A DNA stretch of 57,525 bases from Clostridia bacterium (lineage in GTDB: Bacteria; Bacillota; Clostridia; TANB77; CAG-465). Position numbers and translations under genes: made by a program. Positions within the stretch are counted from its first letter, which is position 1. Each line of letters opens with the position of its first letter. The stretch covers positions 1 through 57,525 of the forward strand of contig JAZSRF010000082.1 in assembly GCA_045538335.1 (NCBI GenBank), given 5' to 3'. This document shows, one piece after another, positions 1 through 10,842 of the stretch. The notes under the pieces were generated by a model. That model worked only from the letters and a program-made list of their open reading frames with translations, was not told the DNA's origin and ran no database searches.

Positions 1-7
1 TTTGCTC

Positions 8-55
8 AAAAAAAGACAAGACAGCATACATATTTTGTATGCTTATCTTGTCTTT
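8..55 (-). terminator. Intrinsic terminator-like hairpin downstream (minus strand) of element copy 1
   Basis: Stems AAAGACAAG(12..20)/CTTGTCTTT(47..55) and GCATACA(24..30)/TGTATGC(36..42). On the minus strand a U7 run follows (complement of the A-run 8..14). Confidence 0.55.
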
Positions 56-101
56 ATTTTTGCTATTTTTTGAGTACGAAAAACGCCACTACTTTGTAGT
101 G

Positions 102-173
102 TTAATTTACATAAAAGTTGTGTGTGTGTGTGTGTGTGTGTGTTACAGCCTCAAGGCTTCTAGCGTTTCTCAT
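102..173 (-). CDS. Candidate leader mini-ORF, 23 codons: MRNARSLEAV(TH)4NFYVN
   Basis: AAGGAG-N9-ATG(173). The frame passes through (CA)12 and stops at TAA 102..104. Hypothetical, with no homology support. Confidence 0.3.
   Translation of the reverse strand: MRNARSLEAVTHTHTHTHNFYVN
119..142. repeat. (TG)12 dinucleotide microsatellite
   Basis: Counted directly: 12 uninterrupted TG units. Confidence 0.97.
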
Positions 174-242
174 TTGTTTTTGCTCCTTCTTTATACAATT
201 ATATTACATTAAGTCTCATTAAAAATCAACTGTATTTATCTT

Positions 243-896
243 TTATTTTAATACTTTTTCTACACATTTATATATGATTTCAGAAGATATATCTGCTGCT
301 TGTTTTTCTTTATAATCATTTCCATCAGCAAAATCTGAAATAGTCCTTATTGTAATAAATGGAATGTTGTTTTTTCTTGCCACATGTGCAATTGATGCAC
401 TTTCCATATCTACTACTGTAGCACCTGTTCTATCTACTATATTTTTTGCAGTTTCAGCATCTGTTACATAGCAGTCTCCACTACAAATTGGTGTTTCTAC
501 ATAATGTACATTTTCTATACTACCTGCAGTCTCTTTAAATAATTTTCTTAGTCTTTCATCTACAATTATATTCCCTTCATCTGGTACACTATATCTCATT
601 ACTCTTTCTGGCAAAAAGTCGTGATAAGTAACATGTGGTGGAATTATAACATCCAAGACATTTAAATCATTTGTTAGGCTTCCTGCACAGCCAGAGCTTA
701 TTATTACATCCACATTATATTTATCTGTTAAATGCTGTGTAAGCATAGCAGAATTAACTTTACCTATTCCACTTCCTGCAATAACAACATTACCTTTAAC
801 ATATATTTTTCTCTTATCATCTACAAGCTCCGGATTATATAATTCCAAGTACCTTTCTATTTCTTTATCCATTGCTCCAATTATTGCTACTTTCAT
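243..896 (-). CDS. mtnN: 5'-methylthioadenosine/S-adenosylhomocysteine nucleosidase
   Basis: 217-aa ORF with PNP/UDP-phosphorylase-fold motifs (GSGIGKVNSA, SSGCAGSL, VDMESASIAHV, IRTISDFAD). ATGA start/stop overlap with the upstream ORF. Confidence 0.85.
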   Translation of the reverse strand: MKVAIIGAMDKEIERYLELYNPELVDDKRKIYVKGNVVIAGSGIGKVNSAMLTQHLTDKYNVDVIISSGCAGSLTNDLNVLDVIIPPHVTYHDFLPERVMRYSVPDEGNIIVDERLRKLFKETAGSIENVHYVETPICSGDCYVTDAETAKNIVDRTGATVVDMESASIAHVARKNNIPFITIRTISDFADGNDYKEKQAADISSEIIYKCVEKVLK

Positions 897-1234
897 TCTT
901 CCTCCTTAAATGTTACAAATACATCTCCGTTTTCTACTGTTATATCGTATTTATTAAGTTCCTGTTCATCTGATCCGTTTTTTATCATACGCGCCCTTAC
1001 TTCCTCGGCAGTAATTTCTCTTCTTATACCTTGAGATAAATTATCTAAATATATATTAGCATAAGCTATATTTGCTAGTTGTTCAAAATTTTTCAAATTC
1101 ATATCCTGTACAACAGTTTCTGCTTTATCTATTATTCCTGTGTTTTCTATACTTGCAATTGTAACACCAGTAACAATTATTAATACTACAACTGTAATTA
1201 CCAGCGTTATTAAACTCATTCCTTCTTTTTTCAT
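893..1234 (-). CDS. Small membrane-anchored protein with a pilin-like N-terminus; stand-alone paralog of the N-terminal module of the 7022..8503 product
   Basis: KKEG-MSLITLVITVVVLIIV hydrophobic segment. About 110 aa align with residues 6-110 of the 493-aa protein (NTGIIDKAE/NSGIINRAGE, ANIAYANIY/AQLGWANAY, KYDITV/KYEIKV). Confidence 0.55.
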   Translation of the reverse strand: MKKEGMSLITLVITVVVLIIVTGVTIASIENTGIIDKAETVVQDMNLKNFEQLANIAYANIYLDNLSQGIRREITAEEVRARMIKNGSDEQELNKYDITVENGDVFVTFKEEE

Positions 1235-1345: not shown

Positions 1346-1678
1346 TTATTTGTCTTCTTCTATATAATGAGGACAAATTTTAGTTCCTGTACTAAATGTA
1401 TGTTGTCTGTACAAGCAATTCGGATTCGGAGCTCTTACGCAATCTGTTTCGCAGTACCAAAGCTCTACTTTTGTATCTGTACCAGTTTCTGCATAAGCAA
1501 TCAGCTTGCGAACAGCATCTAAAAAATCTTCAGCATCTACGCCACTTCTACCTAAAAGTAAAATGTTTTCGTTTGCCATCGAGATGTTTTTCAAAACCGC
1601 ACGTGCTTTAATTGCTGCTTCTTTGCTTCCACCTTCAATACAGTTACTTTCCTTAATAATCTGATTGATATTTTCCAT
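1346..1678 (-). CDS. Cys-rich small protein (110 aa), paralog B, unknown function
   Basis: Start moved to MENINQ (GAGGAG SD upstream). Shares C-[IV]-EGG, Y-C-x-x-x-C, C-P-[FH]-Y and a Glu-rich tail with the upstream ORF. Confidence 0.6.
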   Translation of the reverse strand: MENINQIIKESNCIEGGSKEAAIKARAVLKNISMANENILLLGRSGVDAEDFLDAVRKLIAYAETGTDTKVELWYCETDCVRAPNPNCLYRQHTFSTGTKICPHYIEEDK

Positions 1679-1694
1679 AAAACTACTCCTCAAA

Positions 1695-2021
1695 TTACTC
1701 TTCATAAAATGGACAACGTTTGGTCGCTTTATCTGAAACCATACAGTCACCTGGACAAGGCTTCATTTTGAAATGTTTACAACTCATATCACAGTCATAA
1801 AGTTCTACATGCTCATCCGGACGTTTACTTGCAAATGTCATAAGAACCTTTACTGCTTCTACAAACTCCGAAACATTTACTCCATCTGTTAAGATAATTA
1901 ACTTGTGCCCACCATCGAAGGAGTTCAAAATTACTTCCCGGGCTTTGAGGTATGCTTCATATGTGCCGCCCTCAACGCAGCCGTTATTTTTAATAACGTC
2001 ATAAATATTGTTGGTTTCCAT
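1695..2021 (-). CDS. Cys-rich small protein (108 aa), paralog A, unknown function
   Basis: AGGAGG SD. NGCVEGG...YDCDMSC...KPCPGDC...RCPFYEE. GC-richer than its neighbours. Confidence 0.6.
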   Translation of the reverse strand: METNNIYDVIKNNGCVEGGTYEAYLKAREVILNSFDGGHKLIILTDGVNVSEFVEAVKVLMTFASKRPDEHVELYDCDMSCKHFKMKPCPGDCMVSDKATKRCPFYEE

Positions 2022-7021: not shown

Positions 7022-8503
7022 CTACTTCTTTATGTAAAGTGAGAAGCGGAAACCACAAGCGCTGTACGCGTAGTTAGAATTGTTAATGTGACGGTTCGAA
7101 ACTGGAGTCCAAGCACCAATTCCAGCGAATTGGCCTCCGCGAGGCACACGCTGGTTAGCGTGGCTGCCCTCCATTGTCCATTCATGCATATTTCCTGCCA
7201 TGTCATATATATTATTTACACTTGCTGCTTTTAGCGCACCTGTGGATAACGCCCAATACGTTCCGCTTGCTATTGCCGAACTCGATGTTGCTTCTTGGTA
7301 CGAACCTAGTGTTGAATTAGAATCAACTGCGTACTTTGCATCTTTATTTAAATCTCCTGCTGCTATTGCATGATCACTATAATTTCCATAACTTGTACTA
7401 TCTGCTACACTTGTTACCACATTTCCATTTCCATCTTTTGCTCCTACTTCTAACCACCATGCTAGTGTTCTATCCCACTGCACTCCATATGTGAGCGTTG
7501 ATACTACTCCATAATTTGTATTTGTTTTTGGATACATTCTTCTTGCTACTTCTACTGCTCCATTTGTATCTTCTGCCATAGTATTATTCCATGTCCATGG
7601 TATATATGTGTATGGTATTTTACCCATTACAGAATATACTTTTGTTCCTTCTTTTATTCCTGGTAAATCTGCAGCATTTCCTGCTTCTGTTCTTTGCGTA
7701 TCAATTCCGGCTTCATATCTTGCTATATAAAACCCTTCATATTCTTTTACACTTTCATACATTGCTTGTACTTCTGCTAGTGTTGTACTTGTCATATAAT
7801 TTTCATCTTGGGTAGCTAGCGGCATATTATTTGTATCCACCATTACTTCCCAGTATACGTTTTTTGTTCCTAGTGCATTGTAATTCCCATTTGCATCTAA
7901 AACTTCTGATGTTGTATTTTGAAAGTCTTTTCTTACAAACTTTGTTACAAACTCTTCTCTTGCCACTGGCCCCCATACATATTGATTTCTCGTTGTCATT
8001 GATGTATGATGTGTTTCACTACTTGGTATTTCTGTTTCATTTACATCTAATTCATATATTACAAGTCCACCATCTTTTGTATTTTCTCCCTCATATGGTG
8101 ATACTACAAATCCTTTTGGTATTGGCGCTCCATCTACTATAGCTACTACGTTTGCTTGCCAAGCCTCTGGTATTTTTGCTTTTAATTCTACTGTTACTCC
8201 ACTTGTTGTTACTTTTATTTCGTATTTCGTTACATCTACCTTGTTATCTTCTAATGCCTCATCTACTCTAGCTTTCAACTCTTCTTCTGTTCTTGCACCA
8301 CTCGTATAAGCATTTGCCCAACCTAGTTGTGCTAATTCTTTTACTGTAGCTAAATTTGTTTGTTCTACCGCTTCACCTGCTCTATTTATTATTCCACTAT
8401 TATTTAACGTTAAAACAATTGCTCCTGCTAGTATTACCATTACTATAATTGTTATTACTAGCACTATTAATGATATACCTCTTTTCTTTTGCATTTTATC
8501 CAC
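7022..8503 (-). CDS. Surface protein: pilin-like N-terminal anchor plus FGE-sulfatase/SUMF1 (C-type lectin fold) domain
   Basis: KKRG-ISLIVLVITIIVMVILAG N-terminus. C-terminal half has YIARYEAG, TYGVQWDRTLAWW, YDMAGNMHEWT, RGG...GFRF, all hallmarks of the FGE-sulfatase fold. The 3' end is much GC-richer than its surroundings. Confidence 0.8.
   Translation of the reverse strand: MDKMQKKRGISLIVLVITIIVMVILAGAIVLTLNNSGIINRAGEAVEQTNLATVKELAQLGWANAYTSGARTEEELKARVDEALEDNKVDVTKYEIKVTTSGVTVELKAKIPEAWQANVVAIVDGAPIPKGFVVSPYEGENTKDGGLVIYELDVNETEIPSSETHHTSMTTRNQYVWGPVAREEFVTKFVRKDFQNTTSEVLDANGNYNALGTKNVYWEVMVDTNNMPLATQDENYMTSTTLAEVQAMYESVKEYEGFYIARYEAGIDTQRTEAGNAADLPGIKEGTKVYSVMGKIPYTYIPWTWNNTMAEDTNGAVEVARRMYPKTNTNYGVVSTLTYGVQWDRTLAWWLEVGAKDGNGNVVTSVADSTSYGNYSDHAIAAGDLNKDAKYAVDSNSTLGSYQEATSSSAIASGTYWALSTGALKAASVNNIYDMAGNMHEWTMEGSHANQRVPRGGQFAGIGAWTPVSNRHINNSNYAYSACGFRFSLYIKK
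7025..7175 (-). other. Candidate DGR variable region (VR) at the 3' end of the CLec gene
   Basis: Encodes RGG-QFAGIGAWTPV-SNR-HINNSNYAYSAC-GFR. In the stretch cac att aac aat tct aac tac gcg tac agc gct tgt, 11 of 12 codons are NNY. Local GC spike. No TR or RT in the window. Confidence 0.45.
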
Positions 8504-8520
8504 TCCTTCCTTTTTTACGC

Positions 8521-8567
8521 AAAAGAAAGCAAAGCCAACATAGATTTTACTCTATGTTAACCTTGCT
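8521..8567 (-). terminator. Intrinsic terminator between element copy 2 and the RBS of the CLec gene
   Basis: 16-bp stem 8552..8567/8528..8543 with an 8-nt loop. The three + strand mismatches are all G.U pairs on the minus RNA. Followed by UUCUUUUG, then AAGGAAGGAG and ATG(8503). Confidence 0.65.
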
Positions 8568-8619
8568 TTTTTAACTTATTTTAAGGACGCAAAAAACGCC
8601 ACAACTCTGTAGTGTTAAT

Positions 8620-8682
8620 TTACATAAAAGTTGTGTGTGTGTGTGTGTGTGTTACAGTCCCAAGGCTTCTAGCGTTTTTCAT
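8620..8682 (-). CDS. Candidate leader mini-ORF, 20 codons: MKNARSLGTV(TH)3T-TFM
   Basis: GAGGGAG-N10-ATG(8682). Reads through (CA)10 and stops at TAA 8620..8622. Hypothetical. Confidence 0.3.
   Translation of the reverse strand: MKNARSLGTVTHTHTHTTFM
8632..8651. repeat. (TG)10 dinucleotide microsatellite
   Basis: Counted directly: 10 uninterrupted TG units. Confidence 0.97.
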
Positions 8683-8832
8683 TTATCTTTTACTCCCTCT
8701 TTATACATTTAGTTTATATCAAACAAAAAATAAAATCAATATTTTTTATTAATTTTATTTAGTTTTTCTAACGATACTACCCGGATAAATTATCCGGGTA
8801 GTACTTTGTATTTAGTTGCTAACGTCTTTGAC

Positions 8833-10842
8833 TTACTCAGCTAAGAACTTATCCAGTTCATCCGAAGTAGCAATCTTTTTCTTTATAAGGTACTTCGCCA
8901 TTTGGTCTATTTCTCTCCAATGGGCATCTACAAATTCCTCTGTCTTGTTATATACCTTGGTGATTAGGTTGTTTACTTTTTCTTGAACTAAATTTGCCAT
9001 TTTTTCAGTTAACATACCATCATCAAGATATACATGCCTAAATGTTCCTTCGTCTAAGCCCAGTTGAATAATCGCCTTTGTAGCAACCTCTTTAGCACGC
9101 TTCAAATCACTTCTTGCACCACTGTCAAGAGCTTTGGTTACTTTAAATTGTGCTACTCTTCCTGCAAGCAAAGACATAATATTTGCTTCTATATATTCCA
9201 TATCCAACAGTACAAAAGAATCTTTTTCTTCGAGCATATTTGCTCCTAAAGAATGCTCTGTAGGAATTATAGAAACAGCGGTAACATTAACTGCTTTGTT
9301 TTCCTTAGTAAGCCTTGTTGCAACATAATGACCTATTTCATGATAGGCAATTCCCACAACGTCTTGTTTGCTAAATTTATCGAACTTTTCGAAGAATTCC
9401 TCATACACTTTGTGAACATGAGCTTTTGTAACTTTCTTACCTCCCAGGCGTTTTGTCATCGCCATGCTTCTGTCACACAAGTCAAGGGTTTTATCAGGAT
9501 TTGCGTTTTCCCAACTAAAGCATGCAGAACACACGATTATATAATCCACCAAATTATTTGGCATCTTTACTTCGTGATACTTTTCTAATGCTTTAAGCTT
9601 GGCTTTTATCATAGGTTTAACTTCTGTAATCTTAGGCTCGTTTACAAAAACCACTTCAAAACGTCTTTTGAAAGCTCCATCACTAGAAACGATAGTATCA
9701 TATTCCTTAACTGTGGTAGCACCCAAAAATGTGGCATCATCTCTAGAAAGAATAGGTTTAAGCGAACCACTAAGGTCATTCGCGTTGCCCTCCGAACTAC
9801 CTGCACCAAGCATCTGATGCATTTCATCTACAAAGAGAATAATCTTGTGAGTTCCTTCTAAAAACTTCTTTAAGACAGATACCTTCGCCTCAAATTCACC
9901 ACGATACTTTGTACCAGCTACCATAGAGGTAACATCCAAAGACAAAACTGTATATCCAATAAATTCTTTTGGACAAGTTTCATTTACAATTTCTTGAGTA
10001 ATTGCCTCTGCAATAGCGGTTTTACCAGCACCTGCAGGTCCAATCAAAACGCAGTTTCTTTTTGTTTTCTTAGAGAAAACATTAAATACTTTGTCCTTTT
10101 CTTTATCTCTTCCAAGAATTGCAATCTCTTGCCCCTTAGTGTACTTGTTATTTAAAATTTCTAAGCAATTTTCAAGAGCGGCAGGAATAACTATAGGCAT
10201 ATTATCATCAGAAATATCATCTACAATATTTGCAGTAAATTTCAAGCTTTGCAAGAAATTATCCATGTCTATTTCAAAGGCTTGCATAAGATTACTAATA
10301 AATCTATATGCACTCGTTTCTTTATTTTGCAAAATACTATAGACGATAACATCCAAGTCAATATAATCTAGCTTCATCGCCTTGCATCTAAGATATGCCT
10401 CTTGACAAGCAAGTTCAAGCTTGTCCGAATAAGCGGGAACCATAATCTCTAAGTTGCCTTCGACATCTTCAGCCCACCCCATAACATCTGCAAGCACATC
10501 TATAACTTTTGCTGCGAACTCATCTTCAGCATCTTCTTCGGAAGTTTCACCTACGTCTTCTTGTTCATCTACTTGCTCTTCAAAAACTTTTTCCGCCGCT
10601 TTCTCACCAAAGATACTAGCAAACACTTCTTTATCTTCAAGCATACTGTCTATACTAGGAAGAAGTTGCATACCCATGTCTCCAATTGCTTTAAATATTC
10701 CAGAATCCGGAATATTCATTGCCGCAAAAAGGACATATGCACTTCTTACTTTTTCATCATCAAACCGCCACGCAATATTGGTAGCAAGTTCGAATGCCTT
10801 TCTCGCATTCGCGTTAACATTTGCGTTTTTCCATTCATTCAT
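8833..10842 (-). CDS. Soluble fusion protein: Clp N-domain repeats, Clp-type AAA+ (D1-like) ATPase and FtsH-type M41 zinc protease domain
   Basis: N-terminal Clp_N-like repeats split by an acidic insert (EEQVDEQEDVGETSEEDAEDE). Walker A GPAGAGKT, Walker B ILFVDEMH, AGTKYRGEFE and FKRRFE as in ClpA/B/C D1. C-terminal HEIGH, LLAGRVAQ and GARSDLKRA as in peptidase M41. No TM segment. AAGGAG SD. Confidence 0.8.
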   Translation of the reverse strand: MNEWKNANVNANARKAFELATNIAWRFDDEKVRSAYVLFAAMNIPDSGIFKAIGDMGMQLLPSIDSMLEDKEVFASIFGEKAAEKVFEEQVDEQEDVGETSEEDAEDEFAAKVIDVLADVMGWAEDVEGNLEIMVPAYSDKLELACQEAYLRCKAMKLDYIDLDVIVYSILQNKETSAYRFISNLMQAFEIDMDNFLQSLKFTANIVDDISDDNMPIVIPAALENCLEILNNKYTKGQEIAILGRDKEKDKVFNVFSKKTKRNCVLIGPAGAGKTAIAEAITQEIVNETCPKEFIGYTVLSLDVTSMVAGTKYRGEFEAKVSVLKKFLEGTHKIILFVDEMHQMLGAGSSEGNANDLSGSLKPILSRDDATFLGATTVKEYDTIVSSDGAFKRRFEVVFVNEPKITEVKPMIKAKLKALEKYHEVKMPNNLVDYIIVCSACFSWENANPDKTLDLCDRSMAMTKRLGGKKVTKAHVHKVYEEFFEKFDKFSKQDVVGIAYHEIGHYVATRLTKENKAVNVTAVSIIPTEHSLGANMLEEKDSFVLLDMEYIEANIMSLLAGRVAQFKVTKALDSGARSDLKRAKEVATKAIIQLGLDEGTFRHVYLDDGMLTEKMANLVQEKVNNLITKVYNKTEEFVDAHWREIDQMAKYLIKKKIATSDELDKFLAE

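Follow-up and report, generated by a model that had tools for sequence, protein, structure and literature searches.

The stretch of DNA analysed here (the window; 57,525 nucleotides from a Clostridia bacterium, contig JAZSRF010000082.1) carries on its minus strand a gene for a putative surface protein, preceded by a compact leader at positions 8,504-8,739. The gene encodes 490 amino acids when read from the ATG at 8494, which is a likelier start than the GTG at 8503, the mechanical start of the open reading frame (ORF) that gives a 493-aa version. The features of the locus, all on the minus strand and listed in the direction of transcription, are as follows.

8739-8711, minus strand: putative leader promoter, read from the sequence, with -35 box TTGATT (8739-8734), a 17-nt spacer and -10 box TAAACT (8716-8711)
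8699-8693, minus strand: leader Shine-Dalgarno (SD) sequence GAGGGAG, 10 nt 5' of the ATG
8682-8620, minus strand: leader mini-ORF in its present, short frame, with ATG 8682-8680, 20 codons and a TAA
8676-8653, minus strand: conserved 24-nt module AACGCTAGAAGCCTTGGGACTGTA, codons 3-10 of the mini-ORF (NARSLGTV), recurring in about 20 cassettes
8652-8632, minus strand: A(CA)10 tract detected with TRF, a putative hypermutable frame selector
8631-8571, minus strand: long-frame extension from frame reading, 19 codons and TAA 8573-8571
8614-8591, minus strand: small hairpin CACUACAGAGUUGUG followed by GCGUUUUUU, a predicted fold inside the long frame
8569-8518, minus strand: predicted intrinsic terminator, stem 8569-8526 plus tail CUUUUGCG, from folding and shuffles
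8512-8503, minus strand: ribosome-binding site (RBS) of the structural gene, AAGGAAGGAG, read from the sequence
8494-7022, minus strand: regulated gene, 490 aa, likely start ATG 8494

The 490-aa protein combines an N-terminal membrane anchor with a C-terminal FGE-sulfatase/CLec-like domain, and its match to the Pfam FGE-sulfatase family stayed below threshold (E = 1e-3). Its family is a large one with multiple copies in uncultured gut Clostridia, and one paralogue of the protein adjoins bAvd and a reverse transcriptase. No template repeat of a diversity-generating retroelement (DGR) was detected in the window, where two leader cassettes, the one described above and a second copy at the window edge, form the sole real repeat family. 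Exact copies of the 490/493-aa gene or of its 217-aa neighbour were found on no further contig in the collections searched.

An earlier note on this DNA had proposed the SD, the ATG at 8682, the mini-ORF, the CA tract with its frames, the terminator and the abutting RBS, and all details that were checked were borne out. The promoter had to be revised in part. While the proposed -35 box TTGATT was kept, the TATAAA box at a 15-nt spacing was replaced by TAAACT with its 17-nt spacer, a layout relative to the -35 box that is common to three related loci (L005, L019 and L036). This promoter was not flagged in a consensus scan of the window.

Translation of the mini-ORF from 8682 to 8620 yields MKNARSLGTVTHTHTHTTFM. 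With the present repeat number (n = 10) the frame is closed by TAA 8622-8620, 3 codons past the tract, and the second frame is closed by TAA 8617-8615, 4 codons on. The long-frame extension is read only if the tract length equals 2 mod 3 nt, that is with n = 8, 11 or 14. Its stop lies 4 nt 5' of the terminator stem, whereas the stops of the short frames lie 48-53 nt 5' of the stem. The earlier note had given weight to both copies being one unit away from n = 11; this is true but trivial, since any state of a dinucleotide tract outside the long frame is one unit off, and it has no value as evidence. In shuffles of the window no match to a (CA)6 pattern is expected, and the pattern was found only in the tract at 8632-8652 and in that of the second copy at 119-143.

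The terminator stem has 19 pairs with a predicted dG of -25 kcal/mol, and three of these pairs are G.U pairs on the minus strand only. Two terminator-like sites were observed where 0.1 would be expected from shuffles. Between the ATG of the gene and the end of the terminator tail lie just some 23 nt, so that a separate promoter cannot fit there. The leader as a whole was more stably folded than its shuffles, both at this locus (z = -4.1) and in the second copy (z = -5.9).

This second copy, which had been noted as a cassette with n = 12, was confirmed at 1-229. Its regulated gene lies past the window edge, and its parts are the following.

1-229, minus strand: cassette copy 1
229-201, minus strand: promoter
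189-183, minus strand: SD
173, minus strand: ATG
167-144, minus strand: module
143-119, minus strand: A(CA)12 tract
101-87, minus strand: small hairpin
45-43, minus strand: long-frame stop
55-12, minus strand: terminator

Copy 1 and the cassette at 8,504-8,739 share about 90% identity over the ORF and the first 60 nt past the tract. The promoter and the terminator have diverged, and the hairpin is nonetheless retained. In copy 1 the long-frame stop falls 10 nt within the terminator stem.

A protein-based scan across species genomes returned 15 loci from three MAGs. Three of these (L005, L013 and L019) carry the same leader before a homologous gene, and a diverged version of the cassette precedes a further homologue (L036). 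No cassette was present in the upstream regions that were read for L001, L034, L035, L037, L038 and L039, and none of the other loci fetched had a match to an HMM of the module, which makes the cassette an optional feature of the protein family. A first DNA pattern that needed both conserved blocks had no match in genome or metagenome contigs. With a relaxed pattern of the module 14 metagenome contigs were matched, 13 of them real; the remaining one, L032, was rejected as a GC-rich chance match. No match turned up among viral contigs, phage records or plasmid records. The total stands at about 20 cassettes from gut MAGs and metagenomes, found in part with a pattern search that recovers only cassettes which keep the module, so that the apparent invariance of the module is partly by construction. 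An in-frame ATG lies 1-4 codons 5' of the module in all contigs but L022, and, with the same exception, every cassette has an SD-like GGAG/GGGG run 6-10 nt before this ATG. Some copies, namely L021 and L040, are clearly decayed.

The repeat that follows the module is CA in 10 cassettes, TA in five and GA in four. On the sense strand every repeat is an (NA)n tract of 4 to 17 units. Two of the frames are, in most cassettes, shut 0-4 codons past the tract and the third stays open for 19-37 codons, whereas L005 and L013 have two long frames instead of one. At the level of sequence, repeat number varies among otherwise identical sister cassettes: the alleles L028, L040 and L025 of one cassette, that of the fused subfamily described next, have tracts of 9, 29 and 35 nt (4, 14 and 17 units) and are identical over the module and the promoter-proximal sequence (at least 90 nt), and L029 has (GA)4 where L033 has (GA)14.

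In a fused subfamily (L025 and L028) the long frame is itself an ORF of 460-490 codons that encodes a membrane anchor and an FGE-like domain. These fused ORFs have no other usable start, so that the ATG before the module is a genuine start codon, and the tract in L025 and L028 reads as an ordinary translational switch. No ON allele of this subfamily was found among 5.8 billion proteins; the search with the fused protein returned only alleles that are off the frame of the module's ATG and that had been called from an internal TTG. No frame links the mini-ORF to the 490-aa ORF in the window, where the repeat lies outside the ORF of the regulated protein.

In two cassettes the repeat is decayed. 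It is interrupted in L019, where it reads CACACACATACACACACAACA, and in L036 it reads TACACACGCGCGCATACA. Both are fixed in the long frame, which ends within the 5' arm of the terminator, and the genes behind them have no premature stop (L036 is complete, L019 is open to the contig end). This is the appearance expected of a switch that has become locked ON, and it argues that the long frame corresponds to ON. Among the roughly 19 alleles with a repeat at most three are in a long frame (L013, L019 and arguably L022), and most alleles would be OFF by the model developed below. Long-frame peptides are not shared between species, even over stretches in which the nucleotides can be aligned, so that the act of translation, not its product, seems to matter. 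The long-frame peptides of the TA and GA cassettes end alike, with xMxFRRx.

The module, AACGCTNNAAGCCTTGNNNCTGTA, is the best-conserved part of the leader. It occupies the eight codons just after the start, has an SD ahead of it in every case and always lies directly 5' of the tract, whatever the repeat unit (CA, TA or GA) or the type of output. Where the comparison was independent of the search pattern, species shared 79-92% identity over the module and 54-77% over the flanking leader. Its freely variable positions are first and second codon positions. In L022 the usual frame of the module lacks an ATG, and translation from the nearest SD-ATG pair would take the module in a different frame. 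The module of L036, a cassette with a decayed repeat, has drifted at 6 of its 24 positions. Taken together, these three observations suggest a constraint on the nucleotides rather than on the peptide. One reading, less likely than not, makes the module a cis element dedicated to a portable 'phase-variation cassette'. Such an element could promote or tune slippage or recruit a slippage factor, by analogy with the element that flanks the repeat of H. influenzae hmw1. Two other roles were considered and dropped. As an antiterminator partner, the module gave duplex energies with the downstream leader that were no better than those of shuffled modules at most loci. The idea that its variable NN positions turn into a third-frame stop (TGA, TAG or TAA) was judged not significant, since the variable positions are almost all purines.

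The small hairpin within the long frame has a predicted dG of -5 to -7.5 kcal/mol, and pairing of its U run with the AUG region of the leader is also possible. L019 and L036 have a hairpin at the equivalent position with different stem sequences. The polymerase of Bacillus subtilis reportedly outruns the ribosome (Johnson et al. 2020), in which case attenuation by a leader peptide in Firmicutes needs a pause. The small hairpin with its U run is a candidate for such a pause site, at which the ribosome may catch up with the polymerase, a role suggested by analogy with S. gallolyticus pil1.

Eleven cassettes are coupled to a terminator. In these the long-frame stop lies anywhere from 4 nt before the start of the stem to just past the hairpin, and the frames that close early have their stops some 30-70 nt 5' of the stem. 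Those hairpins that were scored have a strong dG, between -17 and -25 kcal/mol, and most tails read UUUUG. Terminators were compared through folds of each sequence, a MAFFT alignment having set copy 1 and L019 out of register. At the window locus, as in L005, L013, L019, L026, L030 and L036, the RBS comes directly behind the terminator and leaves no space for a promoter. A second promoter-like site is present between leader and gene in L023, in L027 and in the second copy of L031, and the cassette cannot be the sole control there. Outputs appear to vary, being terminator-coupled in some cassettes, fused in others and possibly an RBS-sequestering hairpin in L022.

How much weight the frame layout can carry was judged against dinucleotide shuffles. 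One frame that is open up to the terminator occurs about 0.5 times per locus in shuffles, i.e. it is not rare alone. The joint pattern, with one frame open and two closed as early as observed, had P-values of 0.03-0.16 in seven of eight loci and of 0.47 in L005. The post-repeat sequences of the eight loci cannot be aligned with one another; combined by Fisher's method, the loci gave P = 1.4e-3, a value that offers moderate support since the thresholds were taken from the same data. The fused subfamily, the variation in tract length and the decayed long-frame copies are stronger arguments than these shuffle statistics.

We consider it likely that the locus is a phase-variable transcription attenuator in which tract length sets the frame of the leader ORF. 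The mechanism put forward in the earlier note, from repeat number to frame and from frame to whether ribosomes reach the terminator, is supported by the recurrence of the cassette, the start codon of the fused subfamily, the differences in tract length and the decayed copies. In this model the leader's own promoter would give rise to an RNA of about 190 nt that ends in the terminator abutting the RBS of the surface-protein gene. Slippage would change (CA)n by 2 nt per step and move ribosomes among the three frames. With n = 10 (the window locus) or n = 12 (copy 1) translation would end 3-4 codons past the tract, about 50 nt short of the terminator; the hairpin would form and most transcripts would terminate, giving an OFF or basal state. 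With n = 8, 11 or 14 the ribosome would trail the polymerase as far as a stop codon that precedes the stem by 4 nt or, in the case of copy 1, lies 10 nt inside it. It would then cover the 5' arm, no hairpin would form, and read-through into the gene would constitute the ON state. The anatomy of the cassette, its recurrence, the variability of its repeat and the use of the start codon in the fused subfamily were shown by sequence comparison. The polarity of the switch, with the long frame as ON, and the coupling of ribosome to polymerase are parts of the model that we infer by analogy with S. gallolyticus pil1.

Other readings of the same features were weighed against this attenuator. One is that the tract acts as RNA, through folding, processing or stability, with expression that is graded by length and does not follow a period of three. 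The tract is transcribed and falls inside a long-range helix that is predicted to join the AUG region to GCGUUUUU, and a transcribed repeat that works as a cis RNA element has a precedent (PMC12721329). However, CA, TA and GA tracts share the same slot yet cannot form equal structures, and a length effect would leave the placement of stops in three frames just past the tract unexplained. Since, moreover, the fused subfamily shows that the region is translated and the module has no consistent pairing to the downstream leader, we regard this reading as unlikely.

It is quite improbable that the cassette is a free-standing small gene, for a phase-variable small protein or an sRNA, with the surface-protein gene expressed by leak-through or from another promoter. 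The window and the six loci named above in which the RBS abuts the terminator (L005, L013, L019, L026, L030 and L036) leave no room for that other promoter, even though the cassette has a promoter and a terminator of its own and three metagenome cassettes have the second promoter-like site before the gene. A conserved product might be seen in the xMxFRRx ending shared by the TA and GA cassettes, but this ending is located where the terminator has its conserved 5' arm, and long-frame peptides of the type found in the window are unconserved between species.

Very improbable, too, is an attenuator that responds to a ligand or a protein, either riboswitch-like or through an antiterminator protein, and in which the CA tract serves as a flexible linker. 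The better-than-shuffled folding of the leader (z = -4.1 and -5.9) and the conserved 24-nt block would suit such a device. Long, perfect and variable dinucleotide tracts of three kinds would be unexpected in a linker, though, and neither an Rfam family nor a conserved alternative antiterminator pairing was found; a search of the leader against Rfam 15 returned nothing at gathering score, and relaxing the threshold to E = 10 added sub-threshold noise only. That the cassette is a chance arrangement or relic, a decayed 5' fragment of a once-fused phase-variable gene with no present regulatory role, is scarcely credible, for although fused versions (L025 and L028) and clearly decayed copies (L021 and L040) exist, this low-GC genome has maintained perfect tracts 21 and 25 nt long, conservation is higher in the module than in its flanks, and several species have retained the terminator geometry.

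The cassette is a reusable one that has been placed before many surface-protein genes. The CLec/FGE fold is a target of DGRs, and since the regulated proteins have this fold, their hosts may pair hypervariation in sequence with on/off switching of the same antigens. The module offers a tangible way into the question of whether cis elements that govern repeat instability are encoded by bacteria, and it provides a simple search key for phase-variable genes in metagenomes.

Several known systems share parts of this design. In classical translational phase variation, such as that of Neisseria opa (CTCTT repeats in the region of the signal peptide) and H. influenzae lic1 (CAAT repeats), a repeat near the start shifts the frame and nearby stops shut the other frames, which is exactly the layout of L025 and L028. 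In the window, by contrast, the repeat is outside the regulated ORF and is separated from it by a stop, a terminator and a new RBS, so that the output would be transcriptional. In the leader-peptide attenuation of E. coli pyrBI the ribosome directly blocks the terminator and no antiterminator is needed. There, as proposed here, the position of the leading ribosome relative to the hairpin decides read-through, and an upstream pause may synchronise ribosome and polymerase; the input differs, being a heritable change of frame here and not the supply of a nucleotide or amino acid. The Clostridia also include a surface-protein gene whose leader is subject to phase-variable premature termination, Clostridioides difficile cwpV, where an invertible element between promoter and gene creates a leader terminator. 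That switch works by site-specific inversion, and a switch of this type was rejected for the present locus, which has no convincing flanking inverted repeats; the inverted repeats found were the hairpins and one weak AT-rich pair only.

In H. influenzae hmw1 a heptamer repeat in the 5'-UTR is transcribed and untranslated and forms one arm of a hairpin cleaved by RNase III; expression grades with repeat length, and a flanking cis element was reported to be needed for changes in repeat number (PMC12721329). The repeat is likewise transcribed in the leader of the window locus, and the flanking element is a possible parallel to the conserved module, but the hmw1 repeat is untranslated and hairpin-forming whereas the tract described here lies in a mini-ORF.

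The closest match is provided by the pil1 and pil3 loci of S. gallolyticus, where a leader ORF with GCAGA repeats is followed by an intrinsic terminator (Danne et al. 2014, PMC3894217). Peptides that end 39-49 nt upstream of the hairpin go with low expression, and frameshifted peptides that end 4 bp before or inside it go with high expression (PMC3894217). Mutation of the leader ATG, stops in all frames and deletion of a terminator arm behave as the model predicts (PMC3894217). The earlier note had known of no described example of such a switch, and this claim does not hold, as the principle had already been proven in S. gallolyticus (PMC3894217). Our literature search returned no repeat-in-leader-peptide attenuator other than pil1/pil3.

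The likeness between the two systems extends to a promoter (here inferred), an SD and ATG, a leader ORF with a non-triplet repeat unit and an intrinsic terminator just before a gene for a surface structure. The short-frame stops of either system are tens of nucleotides upstream, the long-frame stops are 4 nt before or inside the hairpin, and in both the majority state is one of low expression (here by the model). They differ in the repeat unit, which is GCAGA in S. gallolyticus, CA in the window and TA or GA in relatives, and we treat them as analogous, not homologous. One of three frames is long in the window, against two in S. gallolyticus and in L005 and L013. Furthermore, the S. gallolyticus system is experimentally proven, whereas the switch proposed here belongs to a lineage of uncultured gut Clostridia.

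The principle is hence not new. What is new is the dinucleotide unit, the portability of the cassette and the conserved 24-nt module before the repeat. Beyond what is seen in S. gallolyticus, the cassette also has a small hairpin and U run in its long frame, and it is reused before many genes, including with a fused output. This suggests that abundant uncultured gut Clostridia make independent use of repeat-in-leader attenuation and do so with dinucleotide repeats.

The hypermutable tracts in the window and in related cassettes, which we fetched from gut MAGs and metagenomes (L-numbered loci), share one short block of sequence in the leader mini-ORF.

Window 144-167 and 8653-8676, minus strand: 24-nt module AACGCTNNAAGCCTTGNNNCTGTA
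L005, L013, L019-L031, L033 and L040: 24-nt module

At all of these places the module lies immediately 5' of the tract, and it is kept among cassettes that differ in their repeat units and are otherwise unalignable. The changes within it fall at non-synonymous positions.

Further features may bear on how the 490-aa surface-protein gene behind the (CA)10 cassette is transcribed and translated.

Window 8775-8803: perfect 14-bp GC-rich hairpin, with a T run on the plus strand only
Window 8483-8492 with 8519-8528, minus-strand RNA: predicted pairing of the terminator tail with the gene start

The GC-rich hairpin lies between the leader promoter and the FtsH-like gene upstream of it (8833-10842). 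Its T run is on the strand opposite to the genes, since those listed over the window's first 12.6 kb are all minus-strand genes. Some transcription of the FtsH-like gene may continue into the leader. At the other end of the cassette, the first codons of the 490-aa gene (G CAA AAG AAA) are perfectly complementary to the U-rich terminator tail UUUCUUUUGC, and the predicted 12-bp helix between them (dG -11 kcal/mol, z = -2.3) encloses the RBS. Similar pairing is predicted for L005 and L019, while in L036 the SD, instead of the gene start, is the partner of the tail. The complementarity may simply reflect a U run lying opposite a Lys-rich start. Alternatively, the tail helix may hide the start site in transcripts that run past the terminator.

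Several of the fetched cassettes appear to depart from this layout in their output or in the gene behind them.

L022, minus strand, about 100 nt past the module and after a short (CA)5 tract: hairpin AAGGAGGAAG / CTTCTTCCTT
L023, L027 and the second cassette of L031, in the leader-to-gene interval: promoter-like site TTGCAAAA, spacer, TGATATAA
L031, minus strand, 2793-2660 and about 1080-800: two (TA)n cassettes on a single 2.8-kb contig

The L022 hairpin, a perfect 10-bp stem, encloses an ATG and buries an SD, and the long frame, i.e. the one that stays open past the tract, passes through it, which suggests that the output of this cassette is translational rather than transcriptional. Here the usual frame of the module lacks an ATG, and the nearest SD-ATG translates the module in another frame. 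The promoter-like site is conserved in its three cassettes at about 100 nt past the leader, and their genes may therefore have a second, ungated promoter that is outside cassette control. The gene behind the second L031 cassette encodes a 129-aa protein consisting of MutS domain I only (Pfam E = 6e-8); such a phase-variable mismatch-binding fragment could affect repeat stability itself.

Two further loci in the window contain small ORFs.

Window 893-1234, minus strand: 113-aa ORF
Window 1346-2021, minus strand: two small ORFs (134 and 108 aa), adjacent and overlapping

The 113-aa product matches the anchor and stalk at the N-terminus of the 490-aa protein (37% identity, E = 1e-18) and lacks the C-terminal domain. 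Its ORF shares 4 nt with the start of the nucleosidase-family gene (Pfam PNP_UDP_1) that lies downstream, and its upstream region is ordinary, without a cassette. The 134- and 108-aa ORFs look like paralogues. Each has an N-x-x-C-(I/V)-EGG motif and a Cys-rich C-terminus, and neither has a Pfam match.

The MAG contigs L008, L009 and L014-L019 have many of the regulated gene's paralogues at their ends; this family breaks short-read assemblies, as expected of multi-copy variable genes. Behind another paralogue, P0007, from the same MAG as L005 and L013, come a 180-aa ORF, bAvd and a reverse transcriptase gene (L037, 3246-4467). This arrangement is a diversity-generating retroelement (DGR; no template/variable repeat pair was found within the window), and the protein family of the regulated gene is therefore of the DGR-target type.
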